From: a virus
Reading direction: 5' to 3' (one strand)
DNA: 24,883 bases
IMG/VR virus record: IMGVR_UViG_3300008050_000019
The notes under the pieces were generated by a model. It saw only the letters and a list, made by a program, of their open reading frames with translations. It made no database searches and was not told the DNA's origin. Position 1 is the stretch's first letter. Every line of letters begins with the position of its first letter. Of this stretch, positions 1,265 through 24,735 are shown one piece after another. A program made the translations under genes and the position numbers.

Positions 1265-1846
1265 TTAAAGTTTATAATTCGTACGTTTCTGCCATTCTCT
1301 AAATTCACTTCCCTCTATTGTGCTTGGGATAGTATAAATTCCGTGGATGTTCTCTAGTAATGATTGAGGTAAAATATTTAGTTTCTGTGCGGTCCCCGGT
1401 ATAAAGATAGGCTCTAAATTATCTGGGCCATAAATTCTATCAATAAAAGGGCGAATTGACATCGGTGCACTTTCTCTAATTAACTCGCCCATAGAAAAAC
1501 ATTCATCAACAGATAGTTTTCTATCAGTAGAAACGTACATATGTATATTTCCTGTGGCTGACTTTATCGCAGCATAGCTGCCGCCAGTAATAGGAAATGC
1601 TTCTGATTGCTCCCATAATTTAAAAGCTTTATAATTAGGCGTGTCAATATCAACCCACATTATATTTTTCTTTCCGGCATGTTCTAATAGCTCGCATGCT
1701 GGGACGCCTGTTAAAATGCCTTTTGCTGAACATTCTTGTAGGAATTCGAATTTTTCGTCAAGTGAAGAAAAAGAAATGTTATGTGTTTTTGCTCTTTCTT
1801 TTGAACCATCAGGCAAAAGCTTAGAATATATAAACCCGTATGTCAT
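1265..1846 (-). CDS. Hypothetical protein (193 aa)
   Basis: ORF overlaps the upstream gene's stop by 4 nt (ATGA). No recognisable motif. Confidence 0.5.
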   Translation of the reverse strand: MTYGFIYSKLLPDGSKERAKTHNISFSSLDEKFEFLQECSAKGILTGVPACELLEHAGKKNIMWVDIDTPNYKAFKLWEQSEAFPITGGSYAAIKSATGNIHMYVSTDRKLSVDECFSMGELIRESAPMSIRPFIDRIYGPDNLEPIFIPGTAQKLNILPQSLLENIHGIYTIPSTIEGSEFREWQKRTNYKL

Positions 1847-3633
1847 TTTAATACCTTATCAATCTCTGATGTCCAGCCCTTTCTATCATTTGGCCATGCC
1901 TTCTTTAAATGACGAACAGACGGGATCGCAATCCTGAACTGTTTTGCTTCATCAATGAAATCATCTTCACCTTTCCATTGCTTTCTGTCGCCCATTCTTG
2001 TTGCACTCCAGGGAGTGCTAATGAGGTCTTCGTCACCTGGGTCTACGTTGGATATATAATTGTCATCATCTGGTGGTTGGAAACTATCATCATACTCATC
2101 ATCCTCCACAGGCCGTAATTCCTCAGGAACGTCCTTATATAATTCAGGAAACTCAGCTCGATGCCATGTATGGTCAACATCACTGCTTATTTGTCTTGTT
2201 GCTTCATCCCATCCACCGGTTCCGTGACCTGCTAATTTTTCGAATGCTGCAGATTTCAACTCAAGAGCGTCTGCTGCTGTATCACTCATGCTACCGTAAT
2301 TCATGCCATTTGGGCCGTTGGCGAAGTCTTTTGTAGCATCAGCGAGAATATTCTCTAATTTAGAAATCTCTGCTTTTTTCATCGTAGGGTCAAGCTTAAA
2401 AGCAATTTCTTTTGATTTTTTGAAGCGATCATATAAGGCAGCTTTTGAAGCAGCATATATAAGCTCTCCTGCGATTGTCGACGCAAGTGCTTTAGCACCT
2501 GGGCTTGTTATAGCAACCGAAGCTGGTTTCATTGCTGCCTTTGCTACACCTGCCAATTTTGCTGGATTTGCTGTCGCTGCAGTGCCCATGGCTGCAGCCA
2601 TACTTTTCAAGAAGCTTCTTCTTGTCGTGCCCTTGGCTTCATCAATGAAATCATCTTCACCTTTCCATTGCTTTCTGTCGCCCATTCTTGTCGCACTCCA
2701 GGGTGTGTCTGTGATGTCTTCGTCACCTGGATCTGTGCTGTGATGATTGTCGGTAGCTTTATCAGCTTGTTGATCATTACGCTCAGTTTCTTTTTCAAAA
2801 TCTTCTGGAAATTCTTCTTTGTACCATTCCCGATTTGCGTCATCAGATATTTTTGCCGCCTGATCAGTCCACGCAGGGGTGCCAAAGCCTGATAAATTGT
2901 CGAATAACTCCATATTGGCATCGAAGGCATCCAACACTTCATCACTATGTAATCCCTCAATACCACCTTCAGGAAAACTCTTCATAGTGTCATTTAGAGC
3001 ATTTTCCAGTTTAGCAACCTCTGCTTTTCTCATCTTAGGATCCAATACACCAATGTGCTTTTTCATTTTGGCCCAGCGATTGTACACCTCAGCTTTCGAC
3101 CAAGCATAACCAAGTTCATTTGCTACAAAGAATGAAAGAGCCCTAGCGCCTGGACTTGTTATCGTTGTTGCCGCAGGCGTCATCGCAGTCTTAGCTACAC
3201 CTGCCAATTTTGCTGGATTTGCTGTCGCTGCAGTGCCCATGGCTGCAGCCATGGACTTTAAGAAGCTTCTTCTTGTTGTGCCTTTTGCTTCGGTGATATT
3301 TTGTGTTTTAAACAAATCACTGTATGTTTGGCCCTCAGATAAACCAAATAAATAACGAAGCAATAATTTCGCTTCCACACTTTCAGGAATTATTGCGTGA
3401 CTATAGGGAAAATCAACACCCACTTCAAGTAGCCCATGGGGAGGTAGAAACCTTCTATCATTGATTGATTCTTCAAGTGAATTTTGTGATTTAACTGTCC
3501 AGTGAAGAGGGTGATAAACCAAGACATCGTAAGTGCCCTCTACAATTTTGAAGCCTTTATCTCTAATTCTTTTGTGTGTTTGCTTATCAGCATCTTTACC
3601 TAAAAAGAATGCTATGGGAGAATCATATTGCAT
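1843..3633 (-). CDS. Large internally duplicated protein (596 aa). Each of the two ~220-aa repeat units begins with a twin-arginine (Tat)-like motif TTRRSFLKSMAAAMGTAATANPA and ends with PWSATRMGDRKQWKGEDDFIDEAK.
   Basis: Long ATG-initiated ORF. The two protein repeat units show mosaic nucleotide conservation (see the repeat features). The N-terminal ~135-aa unique domain has no recognisable family. Confidence 0.6.
   Translation of the reverse strand: MQYDSPIAFFLGKDADKQTHKRIRDKGFKIVEGTYDVLVYHPLHWTVKSQNSLEESINDRRFLPPHGLLEVGVDFPYSHAIIPESVEAKLLLRYLFGLSEGQTYSDLFKTQNITEAKGTTRRSFLKSMAAAMGTAATANPAKLAGVAKTAMTPAATTITSPGARALSFFVANELGYAWSKAEVYNRWAKMKKHIGVLDPKMRKAEVAKLENALNDTMKSFPEGGIEGLHSDEVLDAFDANMELFDNLSGFGTPAWTDQAAKISDDANREWYKEEFPEDFEKETERNDQQADKATDNHHSTDPGDEDITDTPWSATRMGDRKQWKGEDDFIDEAKGTTRRSFLKSMAAAMGTAATANPAKLAGVAKAAMKPASVAITSPGAKALASTIAGELIYAASKAALYDRFKKSKEIAFKLDPTMKKAEISKLENILADATKDFANGPNGMNYGSMSDTAADALELKSAAFEKLAGHGTGGWDEATRQISSDVDHTWHRAEFPELYKDVPEELRPVEDDEYDDSFQPPDDDNYISNVDPGDEDLISTPWSATRMGDRKQWKGEDDFIDEAKQFRIAIPSVRHLKKAWPNDRKGWTSEIDKVLK
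1945..2039. repeat. Intragenic direct repeat R1, copy A (~95 nt). Nearly identical to 2636..2730. Encodes PWSATRMGDRKQWKGEDDFIDEAK on the minus strand.
   Basis: Direct nucleotide comparison: gcttcatcaatgaaatcatcttcacctttccattgctttctgtcgcccattcttgt(t/c)gcactccaggg... is shared with only a few substitutions. Confidence 0.8.
2543..2640. repeat. Intragenic direct repeat R2, copy A (~98 nt). Nearly identical to 3194..3290. Encodes the Tat-like segment GTTRRSFLKSMAAAMGTAATANPAKLAGVA.
   Basis: gctacacctgccaattttgctggatttgctgtcgctgcagtgcccatggctgcagccat...gaagcttcttcttgt.gtgcc is shared with about 6 mismatches, synonymous sites included. Confidence 0.8.
2636..2730. repeat. Intragenic direct repeat R1, copy B. 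Abuts R2 copy A.
   Basis: Near-identical to 1945..2039. Confidence 0.8.
3194..3290. repeat. Intragenic direct repeat R2, copy B
   Basis: Near-identical to 2543..2640. Confidence 0.8.
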
Positions 3634-15623: not shown

Positions 15624-17246
15624 TTATCTCATTTTGTCTTTTACTTTTTTGAGTACTGTGGCCCTGTCTTGCCTGTACTTCTCCTTGTTTTTTAATGTTT
15701 TGCTAGCTCTTAATTCAAGCTGTGATCGTGGAAATTCTGTTGTCCACCGTTTTAGGATGTCATCTGGAGTATCTCTTTTGCCAGCCAGCGTCATTTGAAT
15801 CATGGAGTCTTTACTAGCGTCTGCTTTATCAGCTAAAACACGTATAACATCAGGTGTTAAACTTAGATTATATACTACGCTCATTCTCACTTCCCTAGAA
15901 TGATCACCTGCTAAAGCGAGAAGTATAGATTCAGATGCTAAATTATTTGCTGCTACTTTTCTTCTAACAAGCTCTGATGAATCACTTGCTAAAGTGTTAA
16001 GTATCTCTAAAGAGACTTTCTGATTACTTGCAGTCGTGGCTCTAACTATTTCATCTTCAGCCGTCGAAAGGCTTTCCAGCACGTCAATAGGCGTGTTGAT
16101 ATTTATTGCGAGATGATCTTTTACATAAGTGTTATCAGATGATAACGCACGAAGAGTAGATTGCCCCGTCCGATGATTAAGCGCGACCATGGCTCGGACG
16201 TCGTCCGAATCATCATTTTTAAGCATATCGAGTACCTCAGGAGAAGCATTCCAGCTATCTGCTACGGCCCGTCTAACTTCTTCGTCTGTAGAACTAGCAG
16301 CTTTAACAAGACGCTCATGTGAAGATACTTTAACGTAATCGGTGACTTCTGGCGAAAACTTATACTCTTTCTTGCCCTCTAATGTATCAAGCAGATCAAA
16401 AAATGCATCATATCGAAGCCCGCTGGTAAACTTTTTGAACCTTGGAACAGACGTAATCGCTTTCTTAACGTCTCTTAAAGCAGGATGCTCATGATTCTTT
16501 TTTGTATGATTTTTAATCGCAGTACTAATCTCATCCCAATCGTCACCAAAAGCATCATAAAATTTAAACTTCTTATTGTTATGATCAACTGTTGTTTCAT
16601 TCGGCGCGGATGGTTGAATAACTCCGCCCTTAACGCCAATTGACCACTTCTTCTTCGTATTGTGTTTATCAATTACATAGAAAAGAATTGTATTGTTTAA
16701 AATGTAACTATAAAATAGATTCTCGCCCTTTGTTCTTGCAGTACACCAAACCGTACCACGTCCAATAGAGCATGATGCGTCAACACTTCTTGGCATAAAT
16801 ACAACAAAGTCCTCGGATTCATAAATGTTATCCGCGTCCTTGGCTGCAGCATCATGATCTATCTTAGAGTCTCCAGGAAGCTCTTCAAGCTTCCGGTGGA
16901 GATCGCCAGGTGTCTTATAATTGTTAATATCAGCGTCTTTACCTTTAAGTTTCTGCTTGTTTTTAGCCTTATCAAATGAAATAATGAGAGGTGAAATGTC
17001 TCTGAGAGGTTCATTATTTGAACGTGAAACACGTTCAAGCCACATAAGATATTGCTTTAATTTAGCTTGAGGAAGAACTTGAAGTTTTCCGAAGACTTCA
17101 TCCCATTCTTCTGGAGCCCTGTTAGACTTTTCTTTGATATCATCAATGGTACCCTCACTAAGAAGCTTAATTGCATATTCTAAAAGTTTGTTTTCGCTAG
17201 AGGCACCAGAGATCATCTCTCTAAGTTCAGAAATTTTGACAAGCAT
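15624..17246 (-). CDS. Leucine-rich-repeat-variant (LRV)/HEAT-like repeat protein (540 aa). Its N-terminal ~85-aa domain is duplicated at 24361..24690.
   Basis: C-terminal ~23-aa repeats of the form D...VR..VA.N......L..LA.D. N-terminus MLVKISELRE...EEWDEVFGKLQVLPQAKLKQYLMWLERVSRSNNEPLRD is ~70% identical to the upstream fragment. Confidence 0.6.
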   Translation of the reverse strand: MLVKISELREMISGASSENKLLEYAIKLLSEGTIDDIKEKSNRAPEEWDEVFGKLQVLPQAKLKQYLMWLERVSRSNNEPLRDISPLIISFDKAKNKQKLKGKDADINNYKTPGDLHRKLEELPGDSKIDHDAAAKDADNIYESEDFVVFMPRSVDASCSIGRGTVWCTARTKGENLFYSYILNNTILFYVIDKHNTKKKWSIGVKGGVIQPSAPNETTVDHNNKKFKFYDAFGDDWDEISTAIKNHTKKNHEHPALRDVKKAITSVPRFKKFTSGLRYDAFFDLLDTLEGKKEYKFSPEVTDYVKVSSHERLVKAASSTDEEVRRAVADSWNASPEVLDMLKNDDSDDVRAMVALNHRTGQSTLRALSSDNTYVKDHLAININTPIDVLESLSTAEDEIVRATTASNQKVSLEILNTLASDSSELVRRKVAANNLASESILLALAGDHSREVRMSVVYNLSLTPDVIRVLADKADASKDSMIQMTLAGKRDTPDDILKRWTTEFPRSQLELRASKTLKNKEKYRQDRATVLKKVKDKMR

Positions 17247-17273: not shown

Positions 17274-18329
17274 TTATGACAGTTCTGTCATTGACTTAAT
17301 TTTCCAAATTGTCGTAGCAAAACCAAAATCACTTTTATCAATTTCACCCATGTATGCCGTATTAAGCTCTGGCATCGGATGCTTATCAGGATGCCATCCC
17401 CAGCAATAACATCTGTGTTTTTTGCCAGTTGGTCCCATGATATTAAGCAACAAATAAGGCTTCTTCGTCTTTGTTACTTTTTTAATAGCTTCATCTAAAA
17501 TAAACCAGTGCAGCCCTTTCTTCTTATAGTCATCGATAGTAGGAACGCCGATTTTATCTAACCTTGTTCTGACTTTATCTGAAATTATTAGACTGAGATC
17601 GGTTGACCCAACAAGCTCCTTCAGTTGTCTAATCCATGTAGGCTTATCCCACTCAACAACACCTTGAGACTCTTGTAGGCGACGTTCAAAAACATCACGC
17701 CCTTTCTTTACAGATTTAAGCTTGTGAAGCTGTAAATCAGAATCTTCATAGTCATTGCCCGTCAACACATCAAACATCTGATGATAGTTAGAAAATGTCT
17801 TTCCTTCGCCCACAATACCTGTCGAGTCAAATGCACCTATCTGGATCAGATGTTGCATGGCGCGTTTGTTAAATTTTGAATGTTTCCAGCTTCCGTCTTC
17901 ATTCCATAACAAATCATGAACAGAGTTATAGGGCCTGTTTTCTATAATTTCGTCAACAGCCGCTTCACCCACTGCCTTCACAGTCAAAAATGACGGCATG
18001 AACTTTTTGCCAGGCATTATAGTCCATTTTTTTGTTGCGTGGTTAATATCGACCTTCGTTATTTCATAGCCGAATGCACGTAGTTCACCAATTGCCTTCG
18101 ATCGCTTATCAGGATGGCTAGATTGAGTCTCCATATATGCACATAGCCACTCTGATTCAAAGTGCGTAAGAAGCCAGGCGCACATATACGAATCGATTGC
18201 GTAAGATACAGCATGTGAATTAGACGTTAACAATCCATTGGCAAGATAGAATTGATGATCTGGGTGGTCAACTTCAAGATCATATGCTTGATGTTTTCCG
18301 ATGGATTTAAATGATTTAATTTTAGGCAT
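17274..18329 (-). CDS. dnaE: DnaE-type (Pol III alpha) polymerase C-terminal fragment, preceded by a split-intein C-half (intein-C, 37 aa)
   Basis: N-term MPKIKSFKSIGKHQAYDLEVDHPDHQFYLANGLLTSN matches the Ssp DnaE-c [36 protein letters not shown] (blocks F/G; terminal Asn; +1 Ser). The following SHAVSYAIDSYMCAWL..GYEITKVDIN...VKAVGEAAVDEIIENR...IQIGAFD matches DnaE KSHAAAYALVSYQTAWLK...ILPPDIN...AIKGVGEGPIEAI...SGAFD. Confidence 0.8.
   Translation of the reverse strand: MPKIKSFKSIGKHQAYDLEVDHPDHQFYLANGLLTSNSHAVSYAIDSYMCAWLLTHFESEWLCAYMETQSSHPDKRSKAIGELRAFGYEITKVDINHATKKWTIMPGKKFMPSFLTVKAVGEAAVDEIIENRPYNSVHDLLWNEDGSWKHSKFNKRAMQHLIQIGAFDSTGIVGEGKTFSNYHQMFDVLTGNDYEDSDLQLHKLKSVKKGRDVFERRLQESQGVVEWDKPTWIRQLKELVGSTDLSLIISDKVRTRLDKIGVPTIDDYKKKGLHWFILDEAIKKVTKTKKPYLLLNIMGPTGKKHRCYCWGWHPDKHPMPELNTAYMGEIDKSDFGFATTIWKIKSMTELS
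18219..18329 (-). mobile_element. Split intein, C-terminal half (intein-C) of the DnaE intein
   Basis: See the parent CDS: block F DLEVDHPDHQFYLANG, terminal ..TSN, +1 Ser. Confidence 0.75.
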
Positions 18330-18720
18330 TGCGTTTCCAAATATCTCGAGCCCTTAGCTCAGTTTCTAAAAGCTTGAATTTCTTGTCATATTGGATATAT
18401 GAGTTTATGACATAGCCGCTTGATCCTGCGGCCATCACGTCATTAAGTAGTCCGGATAGCTTCTTTTCGCTCAAGTTGTCCAATTGAGCGCAAGCTGTTG
18501 CATAATTCATAGCGAACTCATGAAACTCAATTTCATTGTCAGGAAGATGAAATTCCCATTTTCGTAATGTAAAGATTATATTACGAATCTTACGTAGACG
18601 CTCTTGTTTACGATGGTCAGCAAATAAAGCTAACGCTAATCCAGAAATTGCTGGCACACCAATAAGCATAATAATATCCATTATTATAATATTAACGCAG
18701 GTATGAAAAAATATACACAT
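18322..18720 (-). CDS. Membrane protein (N-terminal TM segment IIMLIGVPAISGLALALFA plus cytoplasmic domain)
   Basis: ATG ORF overlapping the DnaE-C start by 8 nt. Hydrophobic N-terminus. Confidence 0.5.
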   Translation of the reverse strand: MCIFFHTCVNIIIMDIIMLIGVPAISGLALALFADHRKQERLRKIRNIIFTLRKWEFHLPDNEIEFHEFAMNYATACAQLDNLSEKKLSGLLNDVMAAGSSGYVINSYIQYDKKFKLLETELRARDIWKRNA

Positions 18721-19032
18721 TTATGAATCATACGTTTTATCAAATGCTGCCCAACGATCAGTCATAATAAGATAGATGCGGTATCGCTCTACTGTGTACT
18801 GCTGATTTTTTAAATAGTACATCACAGAAATCTCTGATTGGCCATCATAATATACTGCTGCGGGACCATCTTCCCTATGCAAGTTATCATACACGTAATA
18901 GAACTCTGATATTTTGTCACCGTTTCTTTCGAAAAACGTAGTTGCAGGGCCATCTACCCTATGCAAATCGTCTTGCTCATAATGCTTTAAACTGTATAAT
19001 GAGCCATCATACCAGTATTTTCTAATAATCAT
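18721..19032 (-). CDS. MORN-like repeat protein (HRxDGPA repeats), family member 1
   Basis: Repeats LHRVDGPATTFFERNG / LHREDGPAAVYYDGQ. C-terminal YRIYLIMTD...KTY motif shared with the family. Confidence 0.6.
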   Translation of the reverse strand: MIIRKYWYDGSLYSLKHYEQDDLHRVDGPATTFFERNGDKISEFYYVYDNLHREDGPAAVYYDGQSEISVMYYLKNQQYTVERYRIYLIMTDRWAAFDKTYDS

Positions 19033-19369
19033 AGGTTGACTCCAAACCTTTCATATTATCCATTACAAGGCAATAGATCCTGAAGTCAGATTCTGGCATC
19101 TCAACGTCCTGGATGCTATACCGCTTCTTAATTGGGCCACAAAGATCATACTCTATCATAGCTGGGCCATCTTCTCTGTGCAGTTGACCCTTTATATAAA
19201 AAGCAACAACCTCTATCTTACCGCCGAAATCATAGGTAACGTAGGCAGGTCCAGATAACCTATGATAAGTGCCGTCCTGGATCCATGCACATATTGAGGG
19301 TCGGTGATTATAATGTTTTACTATGTGAAGCTCGCTCATAAGTTCACCACTCTTAAAATAATGTATCAT
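19022..19369 (-). CDS. MORN-like repeat protein, family member 2
   Basis: YHRLSGPAYVTYDFGGK / LHREDGPAMIEYD. C-terminal DFRIYCLVMDNMKGLESTYDY. Confidence 0.6.
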   Translation of the reverse strand: MIHYFKSGELMSELHIVKHYNHRPSICAWIQDGTYHRLSGPAYVTYDFGGKIEVVAFYIKGQLHREDGPAMIEYDLCGPIKKRYSIQDVEMPESDFRIYCLVMDNMKGLESTYDY

Positions 19370-19400
19370 GCTATGAATTTCACCTTTATCATGATAAAGA

Positions 19401-19430
19401 ATATTAGGGCTCTGTGCCGCATATTGATAA
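19401..19430 (-). promoter_or_regulatory. Candidate sigma70-like promoter for 19022..19369: TTATCA-N18-TAATAT (minus strand), followed by an AGGTGA RBS
   Basis: Minus-strand reading of the 182-nt intergenic region: ttatcaatatgcggcacagagccctaatattc...aaaggtgaaattcatagcATG. Confidence 0.3.
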
Positions 19431-19460
19431 TATCACATTCTAACCGCTGATATCAATTGC

Positions 19461-19482
19461 GCATACGCAAGCATACGCAAGC
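19461..19482. repeat. Tandem direct repeat (gcatacgcaa)x2 in the largest intergenic region
   Basis: gcatacgcaagcatacgcaagc read directly. Confidence 0.6.
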
Positions 19483-19551
19483 TCTTTTCTAGTATATTTT
19501 AATAGGTATAGCATATGGTTACCATAGAAAATAATCTGCGTTCTAGAAATG

Positions 19552-19857
19552 CTAGCGCTCTAACCAAGATTTTGCATAGGAGAGATACTCAGCATCTTTC
19601 TTGATTCTTTTCTCTGTTATATAAATGCTATACGCAGAAGCAAGTGATATGTTCTTCCACATTTTAAATGTGGTACCTGTGTGTGTATTTGTATAGCTTT
19701 TACGTGACCATAAATTGTAGAATGGTGATGTACAAAAAAACCCTGCTTCTTTGATTTTGCGGATGGCATGGTACTTTTTTATTAAGTATGATGTTGTGAT
19801 GATAGCGGTACCTACACATACTACCACCACACAAGAAGCTATTATTGGATCAATCAT
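19552..19857 (-). CDS. Membrane protein (101 aa, N-terminal TM segment)
   Basis: MIDPIIASCVVVVCVGTAIITTSYLI hydrophobic N-terminus. Confidence 0.5.
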   Translation of the reverse strand: MIDPIIASCVVVVCVGTAIITTSYLIKKYHAIRKIKEAGFFCTSPFYNLWSRKSYTNTHTGTTFKMWKNISLASAYSIYITEKRIKKDAEYLSYAKSWLER

Positions 19858-19963
19858 TATTCTCTCTTACTCTTTTTTCCCACTCTTCTACCGGGTTAGG
19901 GATAACTGCTGCGAATATAAACGCCCCAATCAGTAAAAGTGTTATTAATGTAAATCTAAACAT
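19850..19963 (-). CDS. Small single-pass membrane peptide (37 aa), not in the ORF track: MFRFTLITLLLIGAFIFAAVIPNPVEEWEKRVRENND
   Basis: ATG at 19963. Its TGA stop overlaps the ATG of 19552..19857 (ATGATTGA). It fills the gap between flanking genes. Confidence 0.35.
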   Translation of the reverse strand: MFRFTLITLLLIGAFIFAAVIPNPVEEWEKRVRENND

Positions 19964-20225
19964 ATGAATCCTCTAACCCTTTAAAATTTCCAACCATGAG
20001 ACAATGTAAGCGAAACTCATATGGCGACAAAGCATGCCCGCGGTAATAGTAACCAATGTCTCCAAGTGCTCCATTAAAATGAAATATTTTAACTGCCGGT
20101 CCATCTTCTCTGTGTATGATACCATCTATCATATAAGTATGAGAATACACAGGGCCAAAGTCCCTGTTCACAGGTGTGGTATTCCAATAATTGATAGTTA
20201 ACGTCTTCACAAATGTGTTATCCAT
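19956..20225 (-). CDS. MORN-like repeat protein, family member 3. Start at ATG 20225 (the track ORF begins at an upstream GTG).
   Basis: MDNTFVKTLTINYWN N-terminus parallels MLNTFTRTLTINYWH of member 4. IHREDGPAVKIFHFNG. C-terminal EFRLHCLMVGNFKGLEDSY. GGGTGG RBS 7 nt upstream. Confidence 0.6.
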   Translation of the reverse strand: MDNTFVKTLTINYWNTTPVNRDFGPVYSHTYMIDGIIHREDGPAVKIFHFNGALGDIGYYYRGHALSPYEFRLHCLMVGNFKGLEDSYV

Positions 20226-20285
20226 ATGTACCACCCATTATAAATTATAATACTATTAATTTCATTTTATCACATATTAGTAAAT

Positions 20286-20639
20286 TCATGTATATGTTTC
20301 ATATAAACCTTCTTCCCATGAATTTACTAAGCATAAAATTCTATAGGTTTTTTTTGATATTCTATGGCCGTTGATATAATATACCTTACTTGCAGGTAAC
20401 ACATTACCGCTAAGATCAAAAGTAAGTGAAGCGGGGCCACATTCGTTATGAAGGCCGCCGTGCCTATAAAATTTTTCTTGATGAACAGCCCCGGTAGTAT
20501 AATAACTGACTTGGGCAGGACCTGTAGTACGATGTATGATTGCATCAAGCCAATACTCTTTGGTGCAAACTTTGTTAAAGTTTCTGGAGTGGGGATGCCA
20601 GTAATTTATTGTTAATGTGCGTGTAAATGTGTTTAGCAT
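20286..20639 (-). CDS. MORN-like repeat protein, family member 4
   Basis: IHRTTGPAQVSYYTTG / HNECGPASLTFDLSGN. C-terminal YRILCLVNSWEEGLYETY. Confidence 0.6.
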   Translation of the reverse strand: MLNTFTRTLTINYWHPHSRNFNKVCTKEYWLDAIIHRTTGPAQVSYYTTGAVHQEKFYRHGGLHNECGPASLTFDLSGNVLPASKVYYINGHRISKKTYRILCLVNSWEEGLYETYT

Positions 20640-20851
20640 GGCACATCACAAATAAGAATATCGGAATTAATCGTACTCGAAGAAACAATGTACTTATCAA
20701 TTTTATTTTGTGTAACACTCCAAACTACAACATCTCCAAGTGAATGTGGGTCCCTGAGATCATTGTTGGATAAGAAGCTCAGAGGAATGTAGTATTCTTT
20801 GAGGAACGTTTCGTAAATAAGCTGGCCAATTTTAAATTCTGATACTAACAT
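20633..20851 (-). CDS. Small paralog family protein 1 of 6 (MLxSEFKIGQLIYD...YYIPL N-terminus)
   Basis: MLVSEFKIGQLIYETFLKEYYIPLSF. Confidence 0.55.
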   Translation of the reverse strand: MLVSEFKIGQLIYETFLKEYYIPLSFLSNNDLRDPHSLGDVVVWSVTQNKIDKYIVSSSTINSDILICDVPC

Positions 20852-20872
20852 AATGCCTCACAAATGATAACA

Positions 20873-21061
20873 TCATTCCTTACAGATAGATTGTTGATTT
20901 CGTATATCAGTTGCCTGAGCGTTTACGACCCAAACTGTCACAGTGTATGACTCTATGAAGTGGGTCATAAGCAGTGATGGCTTAAAAGTCAGAGGAATGT
21001 AGTAGGAATCATCGGGTTTGTCATAAATAAGCTGTCCAACTTTAAGTTCTGATGTTAACAT
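20873..21061 (-). CDS. Small paralog family protein 2 of 6
   Basis: MLTSELKVGQLIYDKPDDSYYIPLTF. Confidence 0.55.
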   Translation of the reverse strand: MLTSELKVGQLIYDKPDDSYYIPLTFKPSLLMTHFIESYTVTVWVVNAQATDIRNQQSICKE

Positions 21062-21267
21062 AATGTCTCACAAACTACATAATCTCTTTCAACAACGTGG
21101 TCCGCTATATTATAGTGTTCAGTGCGGAACCTTGTGATATTAAATACCACCACCTCAAAAACAGGTCCGTGGGGCAGGCTGATTGGTTTGATCTCCACTG
21201 GAACGTAATAAAACTTGCCGATTGAATCATAAATGAGCTGCCCGATCTTGAATTCTGATGCTAGCAT
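21055..21267 (-). CDS. Small paralog family protein 3 of 6 (start at the ATG; the track begins at an upstream TTG)
   Basis: MLASEFKIGQLIYDSIGKFYYVPVEI. Confidence 0.55.
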   Translation of the reverse strand: MLASEFKIGQLIYDSIGKFYYVPVEIKPISLPHGPVFEVVVFNITRFRTEHYNIADHVVERDYVVCETLC

Positions 21268-21482
21268 GTTGCACCGCAAATCACTTGATCATCTTCGACA
21301 GCAACTGGCGTTATATAATAACTTTCAATACTAAGATTTGTAACATTTAATACTGTCGCGCTAAAAGATTCTATGTAGTGTGTAACACACTCAGCCCTGT
21401 CGCCAATAAATAACGGAATATAATAGCATTCATTATACCCGTCATAAATAAGCTGCCCGATCTTGAATTCTGCTACTAGCAT
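21261..21482 (-). CDS. Small paralog family protein 4 of 6
   Basis: MLVAEFKIGQLIYDGYNECYYIPLFI. Confidence 0.55.
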   Translation of the reverse strand: MLVAEFKIGQLIYDGYNECYYIPLFIGDRAECVTHYIESFSATVLNVTNLSIESYYITPVAVEDDQVICGATC

Positions 21483-21709
21483 TAGGATGCCACTCTTAGT
21501 TCTGCTATGACAGTGTCATGTTTTAGCGTTACGTTAGTCATCGTGTAGGTTTGTGCGCCATTTTCCAAAGTTTTTATGGGACTCCGAAATACCCATACAC
21601 TCGCAACAAAAAAGCCCATATCATCGTAATAAGTCTCCAGCGGAATGTAGAAACATTTAAGAGCCCTATCGTAGATAAGCTGTCCAATGTTAAGTTCAGA
21701 TGTTAACAT
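21482..21709 (-). CDS. Small paralog family protein 5 of 6
   Basis: MLTSELNIGQLIYDRALKCFYIPLET. Shares the C-terminal DTVIAEL with member 6. Confidence 0.55.
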   Translation of the reverse strand: MLTSELNIGQLIYDRALKCFYIPLETYYDDMGFFVASVWVFRSPIKTLENGAQTYTMTNVTLKHDTVIAELRVAS

Positions 21710-21921
21710 TATATTACTACTAACTCCGCTATGACAGTGTCATTTCTTAATGATAGGTTAGTTATATTAAATATTACCGCCCTATTATCTGCAATTCTCC
21801 ATGCTGTTACAACATAGGCTGTCTCAGAGGAGTTAGTAGTATCAACTGATATAGGAATATAACAAAACTTGTGGACGCGATCATAGATAAGCTGATGGAC
21901 TTTGAATTCAGATAGCAGCAT
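21709..21921 (-). CDS. Small paralog family protein 6 of 6 (start at the ATG; the track begins at an upstream TTG)
   Basis: MLLSEFKVHQLIYDRVHKFCYIPISV...NDTVIAELVVI. Confidence 0.55.
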   Translation of the reverse strand: MLLSEFKVHQLIYDRVHKFCYIPISVDTTNSSETAYVVTAWRIADNRAVIFNITNLSLRNDTVIAELVVI

Positions 21922-21995
21922 ATTATTAAATGGCCTATTCAATTATAGGACATCTAATTTCATTTTAGCACGCTGTATAAAAATAATATAACTTA

Positions 21996-22235
21996 TCATT
22001 TTTTTCGTGTCCAATATCTATACGCACCAGGAAACGTAAGTATCATTCCAGCTACACTTAGTATAATCGATGCTATAATCAGTGCAATGAATAGCTCAGC
22101 TGTCATCGAGGGGCTCATTACTGATGTTCCGGCTACGCAGAACCCGCTTACATAAAAACCTGATGATGTCTGTGGTCGCTGCCACGATAGCCACACATAT
22201 CCATGCGAACGTAACAAGCATAGAAAGTGCGACAA
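21996..22235 (-). CDS. Small membrane protein. The track start is TTG at 22235. An alternative ATG at 22118 gives a 40-aa peptide MSPSMTAELFIALIIASIILSVAGMILTF...
   Basis: Hydrophobic TM segment. The start is ambiguous because the first in-frame ATG is at codon 40. Confidence 0.35.
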   Translation of the reverse strand: MSHFLCLLRSHGYVWLSWQRPQTSSGFYVSGFCVAGTSVMSPSMTAELFIALIIASIILSVAGMILTFPGAYRYWTRKK

Positions 22236-22252
22236 ATATTGCTAAAATCCCT

Positions 22253-22498
22253 TTAAGCATGGTTAACCTCGGTTTGCTCTATGTGATCAATAACATCATT
22301 AACGTGAACAAATTTTTTATCAAACTTTTCATGTGAATAATATTCCCCGTGATGCATATTAGCTGGATTCCACGCCCATCCGGCACGCTTAATCTTACGC
22401 TTTTTCATTTGAAGTGAATAGGCTGGCAAATTGCCTATGACGGTGACAACTCCTGTAATAGCAGCTATTGCACTTAATATTATACCTAATTCAACCAT
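22253..22498 (-). CDS. Small membrane protein (81 aa, N-terminal TM segment)
   Basis: MVELGIILSAIAAITGVVTVIGNLPAY. ATG start overlaps the upstream gene's end. Confidence 0.5.
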   Translation of the reverse strand: MVELGIILSAIAAITGVVTVIGNLPAYSLQMKKRKIKRAGWAWNPANMHHGEYYSHEKFDKKFVHVNDVIDHIEQTEVNHA

Positions 22499-23513
22499 TA
22501 TACATTTTCCCTATCCTTGTAACCCCAGGTTGTGGGTTTTTTAAACTTTCAAAGAGCTGTTCAAGACATTCTTTTTTAAATTCTTTTTTATTCCACTGAT
22601 CATACGAAATTCTAATTAACGTCCAGTTATGTTTCTCTATATGTTCATCGAGTAATTTATCCTTAAGCTGGATTTCGTCTAAATCTTGCGACTCAAATTT
22701 CTTTTGAAAATGTAAATCTCCATCAAATTCAAGATACACTCGAAGCTTGATATCACCGATGTCAACTTGTCTAAATTTAGACTTTGTAGGGAAAGTAACA
22801 CTTTTGACTCGCTGGCTGCGCTTAAAGCTATAACCCTCAATGCTGCTTACAATTTCGAATAAAGCAGTTTCTGGACGCGAAGTCCACCCGTTTATATATT
22901 TAACAACACACTTTTCATAAAACTCTTCCCAATTTTCTTCCCGCCACTTACGAAGCTGTTCTGTTCTTCTCTTTAAAATTTCTGGACGAGCAGATGTAAT
23001 CTTTGCTGTTTCCGATGATTTTTTTCTAAACTTCTCTGTTTTATTTAATGTGCCAAGAAGATCACTTCTACGCTGGCGTTCTTTATCATTTGACATAATA
23101 GAAGCAGAGACAGCTTTGCCCATTTTTTGTTTGTATTCTGACAAATCTGTACCAGCGTCATTTGCGCGCTGAATCCAGTCGCCATTCTTTTTATTTTGCT
23201 TGCTATAAGCATCAAATGAGCTGCTACATTTAACTGGCCCATGCTTTTCTATATACTCTGGTGCTGTCAAACCATGCTCCACCCTAATGTGGCGTGTTAG
23301 ACTCTTACATCTCCAACCGCATAATGCGCACATGACATATCCGACATTTAAAACAAGCTCTGAGTAGCATTCTACTTCATGAGCTTCTACAAGATCTGGA
23401 GTTCTTCCCCCCTTCCCACATTTCCCGCAACGATTTCTAGGTCGTTTTCTATTATTTTGTGCATTGGAAGCATTCTCCCGTCCATTACCCTGAATTTGTG
23501 ATCCATCGTGCAT
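22491..23513 (-). CDS. Candidate free-standing homing endonuclease: N-terminal Cys/His zinc-binding region plus C-terminal DUF559/Vsr-like (PD-(D/E)xK) nuclease domain
   Basis: CGKCGK...HEVEC...CALCGWRC zinc-finger-like N-terminus. C-terminal VDIGDIKLRVYLEFDGDLHFQ...DKLLDEHIEKHNWTLIRISYDQW resembles the DUF559/Vsr core (D...E.DG..H...D...L...GW.VIR). Its start overlaps the last 127 nt of the intein-N ORF. Confidence 0.5.
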   Translation of the reverse strand: MHDGSQIQGNGRENASNAQNNRKRPRNRCGKCGKGGRTPDLVEAHEVECYSELVLNVGYVMCALCGWRCKSLTRHIRVEHGLTAPEYIEKHGPVKCSSSFDAYSKQNKKNGDWIQRANDAGTDLSEYKQKMGKAVSASIMSNDKERQRRSDLLGTLNKTEKFRKKSSETAKITSARPEILKRRTEQLRKWREENWEEFYEKCVVKYINGWTSRPETALFEIVSSIEGYSFKRSQRVKSVTFPTKSKFRQVDIGDIKLRVYLEFDGDLHFQKKFESQDLDEIQLKDKLLDEHIEKHNWTLIRISYDQWNKKEFKKECLEQLFESLKNPQPGVTRIGKMYNG

Positions 23514-24349
23514 CTTACCTTTTGCCCTTCCTCTAGCTCGAACTCATATAGCTCGAGCATGCCGTGATCATGTCTTTGTAGTACTTCCACAAAGATGTCA
23601 CTCTTATTTCGCTCATCACGCGATTTAATATAGTCACCCGGCTTAATATCGCCGACGGTCGTCGTTTTAATGAGTTCTCCCTCATTTGTATATGTATTTA
23701 TACACTCAGAATGTAACAGAGTTTTATTAAAGCCGTACCCAGAAAATGCTGCAACTCTATCGAACAGACTCTCTGCGTCTGCTTTGCGAATTCCTCTTTC
23801 AACTGCGCCCTCGATAAATTGCTTTTCAAGTTTCTTAGCTTCTTCTTTCGCCTTTGACTTTCCAGACATTGACCTTTTTGTGATAACTTTTCTTAGCTTA
23901 TCACAATCGTCAAGATTCAGTCCACCTACAACATGACCAAGCTTCATTAGCTGTTCTTGGAAGATTACGTGACCGAATGTTTCTTCAAGAACCTCTTTAA
24001 CTAAAGGGTGCTCATACTCAACAGACGCTGGATCATTCTTTGCAGTAATGTATGTCTTATCAACCTTTCCTGTCAATGGGCCCGGGCGATAAATCGATGT
24101 TGCCGTTGCAATCTCAACGATATTCTTCGGTTCTAGATTAGAGAAAAACATCTGGGCGCCTTTGGCTGTGCATTGAAAAACACCACCCCAGTTACCTTCT
24201 TTGTAGATTTTATCGTAAACTGTTTTGTCTTGAAGATCTAAAACGTCAGGATGAAGATTGCTTTCGTACCAATTTTTAATGTCATTAAAAGCTGGATCAT
24301 TGATGGGCTCAGCTTTTTTGAGTATAGTTTTCTTTCTTAATTTAACCAC
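23387..24349 (-). CDS. dnaE: DnaE-type (Pol III alpha) polymerase internal fragment (fingers region) fused to a split-intein N-half. The fragment begins at GTG immediately after an in-frame TAA.
   Basis: GGVFQ...IYRPGPL...FGHVIFQEQLMKLG...FSGYGFNK matches DnaE AVFQLES...LFRPGPL...YGIILYQEQVMQIA...FAGYGFNKSH. After ...TLLHSE the sequence CINTYTNEGELIKTTTVGDIKPGDYI...RCTMDHKFRVMDGRML matches the Ssp DnaE-n intein blocks A/B, then a stop. Confidence 0.8.
   Translation of the reverse strand: MVKLRKKTILKKAEPINDPAFNDIKNWYESNLHPDVLDLQDKTVYDKIYKEGNWGGVFQCTAKGAQMFFSNLEPKNIVEIATATSIYRPGPLTGKVDKTYITAKNDPASVEYEHPLVKEVLEETFGHVIFQEQLMKLGHVVGGLNLDDCDKLRKVITKRSMSGKSKAKEEAKKLEKQFIEGAVERGIRKADAESLFDRVAAFSGYGFNKTLLHSECINTYTNEGELIKTTTVGDIKPGDYIKSRDERNKSDIFVEVLQRHDHGMLELYEFELEEGQKVRCTMDHKFRVMDGRMLPMHKIIENDLEIVAGNVGRGEELQIL
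23390..23704 (-). mobile_element. Split intein, N-terminal half (intein-N, 105 aa) of the DnaE intein
   Basis: Begins with Cys (CINTYT). Block B TMDHKF. Length and sequence parallel cyanobacterial DnaE-n split inteins. Terminates with a stop codon rather than continuing into an endonuclease domain. Confidence 0.75.
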
Positions 24350-24360
24350 ATTTTATTTTA

Positions 24361-24690
24361 TCACATTTCGTGGCCGAATTGAATATAAAGTGAAAACAAA
24401 TATAAAATCTCTAAAGGTCTCTTGCGCTCATTCAATACATAATCTCTTAAGGGTTCTTGATTTGAACGTGAAACACGTTCAAGCCACGTAAGATACTGCT
24501 TTAGCTTAGCCTGAGGGAGAACTTGAAGTTTCTCAAAAACTTCATCCCACTCTTCAGGGTGCCTATTAGATTTTGCTTTGACATCATCAATAACAGTCTC
24601 TTGTAAAAGATGGCCAATTAAGCTTCTTAAGTTACTTTCTACAATACAATTTGAAATAGCTTCTCTAAGGAACTTAACTTTAACCAGCAT
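24361..24690 (-). CDS. Truncated paralog of the N-terminal domain of the LRV-repeat protein 15624..17246 (109 aa; possible gene remnant or stand-alone domain protein)
   Basis: MLVKVKFLRE...DDVKAKSNRHPEEWDEVFEKLQVLPQAKLKQYLTWLERVSRSNQEPLRD. About 85% nt identity to 17020..17125 over the core, then it diverges and stops. Confidence 0.45.
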   Translation of the reverse strand: MLVKVKFLREAISNCIVESNLRSLIGHLLQETVIDDVKAKSNRHPEEWDEVFEKLQVLPQAKLKQYLTWLERVSRSNQEPLRDYVLNERKRPLEILYLFSLYIQFGHEM

Positions 24691-24735
24691 TGTCAATAAC
24701 TATTTTCATAGAAAGTTTCTTTCATCTCAGGTTTT

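Follow-up and report, generated by a model that had tools for sequence, protein, structure and literature searches.

Gene content of the locus

The IMG/VR virus record IMGVR_UViG_3300008050_000019 comprises 24,883 nucleotides (the window, hereafter) and carries on its minus strand a DnaE gene broken into two open reading frames (ORFs), 23387-24349 and 17274-18329, which hold complementary halves of a split intein. Directly after the first of these lies a gene whose product contains two zinc fingers, a helical middle region and a C-terminal Vsr-like nuclease domain (Table 1). The original prediction had taken this gene to encode a free-standing homing endonuclease next to the intein-N half, with a Cys/His-rich N-terminus and a 127-nt overlap with the intein-N ORF in another frame. 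The minus-strand ORF is present as described (22491..23513, ATG, 340 aa), its N-terminus carries C29, C32, H45 and C49 followed by C62, C65, H75 and H80, and the overlap (23387-23513) is in the -1 frame, the endonuclease codons starting 1 nt 5' of the intein-N codons. On the evidence presented below, we think it likely that the gene encodes a free-standing Vsr-like/EDxHD homing endonuclease at a split-intein break in jumbo-phage DnaE, making this a "fractured gene".

The protein has 59 homologues in a collection of 5.8 billion proteins (best E 1e-114), and a profile search of 1.84 billion cluster representatives, clustered at 50% identity, recovered 163 clusters at E<=1e-30, 384 at E<=1e-10 and 4,908 at E<=1e-3. 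The 59 homologues and 163 clusters indicate that the ORF is more than a chance occurrence. In every homologue locus that could be read (~22 of ~22; related loci are given below by L numbers) the gene lies directly after the ORF for the DnaE finger and intein-N half, at the same site, GYGFNK/SH (a slash marks an insertion point), and homologues were found only in this position. The predicted location at a split-intein break is thus upheld, with the qualification that the gene in the window abuts the intein-N half only, the intein-C half beginning 4,161 nt beyond the endonuclease stop codon.

No relatives were found in 185,579 cellular species genomes (species representatives), and the full protein had no tblastn match at 1e-5 among deposited phages. 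The nuclease domain alone gave weak hits to deposited phages (E ~5e-4 to 10), a few of which fall on genes annotated as homing or HNH endonucleases, and a single-protein search of viral contigs for related loci returned nothing. Over 9,883 nt the window matches, with 100% identity, one end of a metagenomic contig of 308,593 bp, which shows that the DNA comes from an uncultured jumbo phage; deposited phages include no close relative. The end of the window (24883) coincides, to within 1-3 nt, with the ends of two separate contigs in ENA that carry the identical sequence (308,593 bp and 1,733 bp; L010 and L012), which marks either a genome terminus or a common assembly break.

Table 1. Features of the endonuclease gene and the broken DnaE gene in the window. 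pLDDT, predicted local distance difference test score of the structural model.
Feature	Position	Strand	Description
Endonuclease gene, longest ORF	22491..23513	minus	ATG start, 340 aa; 59 homologues; model pLDDT 88.6
Overlap of intein-N ORF and endonuclease ORF	23387..23513	minus	127 nt; endonuclease frame shifted -1
Leader, residues 1-28	23430..23513	minus	Disordered, overprinted on conserved intein-N end (block B to "...DLEIV"); pLDDT <50 for residues 1-24
Zinc finger 1, C2HC (C29-x2-C32-x12-H45-x3-C49)	23367..23429	minus	pLDDT 60-83; CxxC part within overlap with unconserved intein-N tail
Zinc finger 2, Ros/MucR-type C2H2 (C62-x2-C65-x9-H75-x4-H80)	23238..23348	minus	Pfam ROS_MUCR
Helical middle region, residues 97-223	22845..23225	minus	Helices at pLDDT >84; conserved motifs
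Vsr-like/EDxHD nuclease domain, residues 225-340	22494..22841	minus	D251, E262-x-D264-G265, H268, D285; E215 just upstream
Purine-rich, Shine-Dalgarno-like stretch (GGAAGGG...AAGG)	23518..23531	minus	5-18 nt upstream of ATG; read directly from the sequence; putative function
DnaE-finger/intein-N ORF	23387..24349	minus	Upstream of endonuclease; DNA_pol3_finger (E 7e-33), then intein N-half
DnaE N-extein, finger domain, residues 1-210	23723..24349	minus	Ends ...FSGYGFNK; DNA_pol3_finger E 7e-33; PRK05673 positions 569-752
Intein-N half, from Thr211 (TLLHSE...)	23387..23722	minus	Conserved to ~...DLEIVA (23423), then unconserved read-through tail and stop
Insert between endonuclease and intein-C	18330..22490	minus	4,161 nt; ~14 small ORFs in one orientation, none with a family match
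Intein-C half, 37 aa (...GLLTSN), then Ser+1	18219..18329	minus	TIGR01443; PRK07373 positions 1-36
DnaE C-extein (SHAVSYA..., HhH/OB part)	17274..18218	minus	PRK05673 positions 752-1016; phrog_405

The nuclease domain

The C-terminal domain has a Vsr-type restriction-endonuclease-like fold. The original prediction had read the segment VDIGDIKLRVYLEFDGDLHF...IRISY, found at residues 250-304, as part of a DUF559/Vsr-like nuclease, and its nuclease-like reading of the C-terminus stands, with assignment to the Vsr-like/EDxHD family; neither of the two grounds it named for its own refutation proved to hold. All 41 family members in an alignment carry D251, E262, D264, G265, H268, D285 and R301, and 40 of them carry E215. 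Another residue takes the place of the Lys in the classical PD-(D/E)xK motif, as it does in Vsr-like enzymes. Taylor et al. 2011 (PMC3239194) named the EDxHD family and demonstrated its activity; their enzyme I-Bth0305I (PDB 3r3p) has the motif residues E170, D196, N208, H213 and D222. Alignment with hhalign pairs E215 with E170, D251 with D196, E262-x-D264-G with E206-x-N208-G and D285 with D222, and places H268 one residue away from H213. The residue that aligns with E206, the invariant E262, is the Glu that Dassa et al. 2009 (PMC2677866) noted as invariant at the position of Vsr Phe62, a likeness to the loci described there.

PHROG 7140, "intron encoded nuclease", matches weakly, at E 3.7e-4, and the E-x-D-G-x-x-H motif resembles that of DUF559. 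For the window's protein, Pfam RAP (PF08373) reaches 21.2 bits, below its cut-off of 24.2, and DUF559 (PF04480) gives no hit; 8 and 6 of the 41 members match the two families at E<=0.01. Pfam Vsr matches none of the 41. The protein does not conform to a Vsr mismatch-repair endonuclease proper, which is a stand-alone enzyme of ~150 aa in cellular genomes, given this lack of a Vsr match, the 340-aa length with DNA-binding modules, and the absence of relatives from species-representative cellular genomes. Some family members have been named "very-short-patch-repair endonuclease" by the Joint Genome Institute (JGI).

Zinc fingers and the helical middle region

The ligands of zinc finger 1 are conserved in 20/20, 21/21, 22/26 (the other 4 having Cys) and 25/26 of the homologues that cover the region, and those of zinc finger 2 (C62, C65, H75 and H80) in 31/32 to 35/35 sequences. 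Zinc finger 2 is a Ros/MucR finger: residues 56-92 match Pfam ROS_MUCR (PF05443) at E 4e-7, with 30.5 bits against a gathering score of 25.4; this Pfam match is present in 18 of the 41 family members, and the family profile matches Ros87 (PDB 2jsp) at E 1.2e-5. The likeness to Ros/MucR regulators covers the C-x2-C-x9-H-x4-H finger and its flanking conserved residues. This ~40-aa module is all that is held in common with the stand-alone regulators, and here it would be one DNA-binding module of a nuclease.

Residues 97-223 contain the conserved motifs AVSxxIMSNPxERxRR and SSxTAKxTSARPEI and are probably a DNA-binding or linker module, for which neither a family match nor a Pfam NUMOD hit was found. 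Full-length structural matches in BFVD are phage proteins annotated as endonuclease, ROS/MUCR, DUF559, NUMOD3 or homing endonuclease.

The split intein and its insertion site

When the two ORFs are joined and the intein removed, the exteins read GYGFNK-SHAVSYA, as in uninterrupted homologues, placing the insertion site at GYGFNK/SH. A contiguous GYGFNK-SHA without intein occurs in 90 of the 120 best DnaE homologues; one such empty site, P0063 of L013, has identical flanking protein sequence with 48/72 identical nucleotides. We set the intein start at Thr211 (23722), since position 211 is kept as T, S or C (T, T, S, T, T, C, T across seven loci). An alternative start at Cys217 ("CINTYT") was rejected because this residue is not conserved, being K, G, L, S, L and L elsewhere. 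The result is a split intein without catalytic Cys, having Thr1 (Ser or Cys in some relatives), Ser+1, and a C-terminal Ser-Asn instead of His-Asn.

Compared with solved structures, the joined intein matches the DnaE inteins of Npu (E 5e-19, over both halves) and Ssp (E 2e-12), then DnaX (E 1e-5) and gp41-1 (E 3e-3), and the isolated halves match the cyanobacterial half-gene models PRK09532 and PRK07373. No known intein is closer to the cyanobacterial DnaE split intein (Npu, Ssp; PDB 4kl6, 2keq, 1zd7) than this phage one, and the two have the host protein and the split point (~100 + 36-37 residues) in common. The insertion sites are not identical. The native Npu junction is AEY/CFNK (PMC3759424), and the site in the window lies 4 residues downstream of it; FNK precedes the intein here and follows it in Npu, and for this reason we rejected identity of the two sites. 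The nucleophiles also differ (Thr1 and Ser+1 in the window, Cys1 and Cys+1 in the cyanobacterial intein), and the cyanobacterial halves lie far apart without an endonuclease, whereas the window's element still has one.

With no ORF of at least 600 aa, the window lacks the PHP/palm part of DnaE, which is ~730 aa long in relatives. A 540-aa LRV/HEAT-repeat protein (15624-17246) follows the DnaE C-part, and a 111-aa ORF upstream of the DnaE-finger gene (24361-24696) is a truncated paralogue of its N-terminus, with 85% nucleotide identity over 140 nt (24452-24591 versus 17008-17147). L001 likewise has related genes on both sides. This suggests that the surroundings of the DnaE pieces were once duplicated or rearranged.

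DnaE is interrupted at further sites in relatives. On the jumbo-phage contigs L007 (5501-9999) and L009 (3617-9837), two or three distinct intein sites split it, each break holding its own Cys-rich nuclease gene; these include a second Vsr-like one with ELDGDYWHG (L007) and one of D...ExK type (L009). Many DnaE homologues begin with an intein-C at a ...THN/SFPDID site. Elsewhere in the window, a 596-aa ORF (1843-3633) is an internal tandem duplication, each copy carrying a motif resembling a twin-arginine signal (TRRSFLKSMAAAMGTAATANPAKLAGVAK) and ending in ...STPWSATRMGDRKQWKGEDDFIDEAK.

The endonuclease start codon lies within intein block B

The ATG of the endonuclease gene (23513-23511) is placed 1 nt 5' of the Cys codon of intein block B, whose motif at the start site is R/K-C-T-x-[DN]-H-K-F. 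The first start codon of the endonuclease frame has exactly this position in 16 loci, as ATG in 14 and as GTG in L020 and L024, and the overlaps between endonuclease and intein-N are 97-142 nt across the loci with a block-B start. Intein-N is conserved up to ...L-x-I-V, beyond which come unconserved tails, 3-19 residues long. The endonuclease is therefore overprinted on constrained intein codons for its first ~28 codons, and the first CxxC of zinc finger 1 overlies the unconstrained tail. Proteins of a second subfamily (L021, L023, L029) begin immediately after intein-N and have one more Cys-rich domain at the N-terminus, and the truncated copy in L009 is without fingers and has no start codon at the block-B position.

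We recoded the last 42 intein-N codons synonymously according to the window's own codon usage in 50,000 trials. The -1 frame was open over the 42 overlapping codons in 0.3% of recodings and both open and ATG-initiated in 0.15%; the same test found an open frame in 0.2% (L001), 1.2% (L003), 4% (L004) and 0.5% (L008) of recodings at other loci. From the rarity of an open frame we conclude that the overlap is maintained by selection.

Not all gene calls agree with the block-B start. Gene callers in two sources start the protein later, at M61 (23333; 280 aa) or V78 (263 aa), and the overlap could then be an artefact of ORF calling, with the 60 codons upstream of M61 open by accident. The predicted disorder of residues 1-24 would fit such an explanation, and conservation of the leader could simply mirror the intein-N codons. 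We regard a later start as very unlikely, however. No ATG, GTG or TTG occurs between M1 and C29. Conservation of C29, C32, H45 and C49 extends to all homologues that include this region, and the structural model shows a folded finger here. A start at V78 would moreover truncate the Ros/MucR finger. Nor would accident readily account for a start codon at the same nucleotide in 16 loci or for the rarity of an open frame in the window and in four other loci.

The purine-rich stretch upstream of the ATG (Table 1) is built from the intein codons for the conserved block-B Gly and the residues that follow, and comparable GGAG/GGGAG stretches are found in L001, L003, L004, L007 and L008. A further possibility is that the endonuclease is made as a -1 frameshift fusion to the DnaE-finger/intein-N protein, trans-splicing then yielding an intein with an attached endonuclease domain. 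The frames in the window do differ by -1, and the in-frame 779-aa ORF of L014 (P0182; see below) shows that a fusion is tolerated. Direct reading of the overlap found no X XXY YYZ slippery heptamer, on which ground we rejected programmed -1 frameshifting; in addition, the conserved ATG/GTG and the purine-rich stretch favour independent initiation, and the endonuclease frame of L001 and L003 is closed by a stop 5-6 codons before the ATG. A frameshift fusion therefore seems to us hardly credible.

Control by a late promoter or hairpin, as in the loci of Dassa et al. 2009, was also rejected, the candidate signals being not above chance or only marginal. The T4-type late-promoter consensus TATAAATA occurs as a single copy at 23695-23702 (minus strand), within intein-N and 182 nt upstream of the start, at chance frequency, and it is not conserved in relatives. 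A perfect 9-bp hairpin at 23535-23557 (minus strand), encoded by the LELYEFELE codons, is likewise not above chance and not kept in relatives. The hairpin upstream of the start has a z of -2.1, and the purine-rich stretch is almost wholly unpaired in the predicted fold. Neither the Rfam scan nor the tRNA scan gave a hit.

Separation of the intein halves

The intein halves are ~5 kb apart in the window. The endonuclease stop codon overlaps the start of the next ORF, for a predicted membrane protein of 81 aa, by 8 nt (AATGGTTGA, window 22491-22498); in relatives, the same kind of stop/start junction joins the endonuclease to intein-C. The insert includes a six-member paralogue array at 20633-21942, with ORFs of 62-77 aa starting ML.SEFKIGQLIYD, and a four-member array at 18721-20639, with ORFs of 92-117 aa and repeated "HREDGPA"-like motifs; neither array has a Pfam match. 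An impression of hypervariable gap content from L010 and L011 was rejected, both being 100% identical to the window by BLAST and the differences arising from gene calling.

This insert is absent in most relatives. Intein-C begins within -32 to +201 nt of the endonuclease in L003, L004, L007-L009 and 14 of 15 full-length IMG/VR loci; on the fifteenth, L022, the contig stops 2.5 kb past the endonuclease. An endonuclease 3' end that abuts or overlaps intein-C is thus true of most relatives and not of the window. L001 has five unrelated small genes between the endonuclease and intein-C, and its 2-kb insert is not homologous to that of the window. In L014 (6001-8340), the DnaE finger, intein-N and endonuclease form one in-frame ORF of 779 aa, P0182, which is a half-integrated endonuclease. 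No intein-C was found within 5 kb in L014, and its DnaE finger holds an additional contiguous mini-intein at an FQ/C site. The loci therefore form a graded series of separation between the halves: adjacent in most loci, 2 kb in L001, 4.2 kb in the window, and >5 kb in L014 with its in-frame fusion.

Comparison with known systems

Dassa et al. 2009 (PMC2677866) reported free-standing Vsr-like endonucleases lodged between the two halves of split inteins, three of the loci being in DnaE. As in those DnaE loci, the window has a host replication gene in two ORFs, a split-intein half on each and a Vsr-like endonuclease at the break, and the element is carried by a phage. As in their DnaE-2, the catalytic domain is C-terminal in a protein of >315 aa; DnaE-2 may be the same allele as that of the window. 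There are differences as well. The 2009 loci have 5' untranslated regions (UTRs) with hairpins or late promoters, while the window has no 5' UTR ahead of the endonuclease, its start codon lying in block B. The 3' end of the endonuclease overlaps intein-C by 6-69 bp in the 2009 loci, and intein-C is 4.16 kb away in the window. NUMOD-3 motifs were reported in two of their members and no zinc fingers, compared with the two zinc fingers found here. Finally, their split inteins were stated not to be closely related to the cyanobacterial ones, to which the window's intein is nearest.

I-Bth0305I is encoded in a group I intron, uses NUMOD/helix-turn-helix motifs and has the motif E-V-N-G-x-x-W-H, whereas the gene studied here lies at a split-intein break and encodes a protein with zinc fingers and the motif E-F-D-G-x-x-H-F. 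A 2025 preprint (bioRxiv 10.1101/2025.01.02.630785) reports out-of-frame and antisense endonucleases within actinophage inteins, interpreted as the invasion of an intein by a free-standing endonuclease. The likeness lies in an endonuclease encoded in a different frame from the splicing domain. The actinophage inteins, however, are contiguous and contain EndoVII-like (frame 3) or antisense Vsr-like/LAGLIDADG genes; in the window, a split intein is accompanied by a Vsr-like gene on its own strand, of which only the first 42 codons are shared with intein-N.

A proposed homing cycle and its difficulties

If the protein is a homing endonuclease, its translation would start at the block-B ATG (23513) using the purine-rich stretch of intein codons. 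Because this start lies inside block B, endonuclease expression is expected to be tied to translation of the DnaE/intein-N message, on which it would depend and by which it would probably be damped. The zinc fingers and helical module may then bind DNA around the insertion site, allowing the nuclease domain, a dimer in I-Bth0305I, to cut an intein-less dnaE allele during co-infection. Through recombinational repair the cut allele would receive both intein halves together with the endonuclease and whatever cargo lies between them. DnaE would be restored by protein trans-splicing (Thr1, Ser+1), and the insertion would thereby be tolerated.

Several observations weigh against this reading, in which nuclease activity and homing of the 340-aa protein are inferred. 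The sequence similarity to I-Bth0305I is not significant (hhalign E 0.11), although the register is sensible; the hhalign comparison with gp36 is not significant either (E 0.43). In the PDB, the sequence search and the search with the family profile both find the Ros finger only and no nuclease. The conserved His stands 3 residues after the conserved Gly, as in DUF559, rather than 4 as in Vsr or I-Bth0305I. The later starts chosen by the gene callers count on the same side. In addition, no unsplit intein was found at GYGFNK/SH, and that invasion by the endonuclease split the intein is consequently still an inference. A search for homologues of the joined intein yielded 3 intein-C fragments only.

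A last difficulty is the 4.16-kb insert, which must be co-converted for homing; this copy of the endonuclease may for that reason be immobile. The gene could thus be an intact former homing endonuclease, now serving as a DNA-binding regulator or repair nuclease or simply kept because its 5' end is locked in intein-N. The uncoupling of the halves in the window and by >5 kb in L014 should hinder homing, the Ros/MucR finger is a transcription-factor domain, the fingerless L009 copy shows that decay occurs, and the JGI name would fit a repair role. Weighing more heavily, in our view, is that catalytic and zinc ligands are kept across 41 diverged sequences, and that the family occupies a single DnaE site, vacant in most relatives, as is characteristic of a mobile element. 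The lack of relatives in cellular species genomes and of Pfam Vsr matches also speaks against such a domesticated role, which we judge unlikely. Each of the three alternatives, an immobile copy, a start at M61 and a frameshift fusion, is less well supported than a homing endonuclease.

Implications for split inteins and the EDxHD family

This kind of element is already known, the fractured-gene arrangement having been described in 2009, and the main value of the present locus lies in confirmation and detail. Among the features undescribed in the accounts consulted are a conserved block-B start without a 5' UTR, zinc-finger recognition modules, and multi-kb cargo between the intein halves. The analysis also adds a large unannotated branch to the EDxHD family, with 163 clusters at 50% identity and none in deposited phages (E<=1e-5) or cellular species genomes. 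If the zinc fingers serve in DNA recognition, the protein represents a natural zinc-finger-plus-dimeric-nuclease design. The overlap with intein-N offers a solution to gene overlap in which the start signals of the endonuclease are built from the most conserved intein codons; if true, the block-B-embedded start would be a previously undescribed tie between the expression of an endonuclease and its intein.

The graded loci provide a concrete series of split-intein halves drifting apart, in an intein more closely related than any other known one to the cyanobacterial DnaE split inteins in wide use. One may speculate further that the phage element survives as a relative of the form from which the cyanobacterial split DnaE intein arose, on the grounds that host protein and split point are the same, the splicing domain is homologous, the site is 4 residues away and the endonuclease is retained. 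We hold this to be a possibility of fairly low probability; if true, the series would make the path from endonuclease invasion to split intein to genomic uncoupling observable rather than just a model, and it would suggest that the cyanobacterial arrangement came from phages. As a Cys-free Thr1/Ser+1 split intein, the element may also be of interest to protein engineers.

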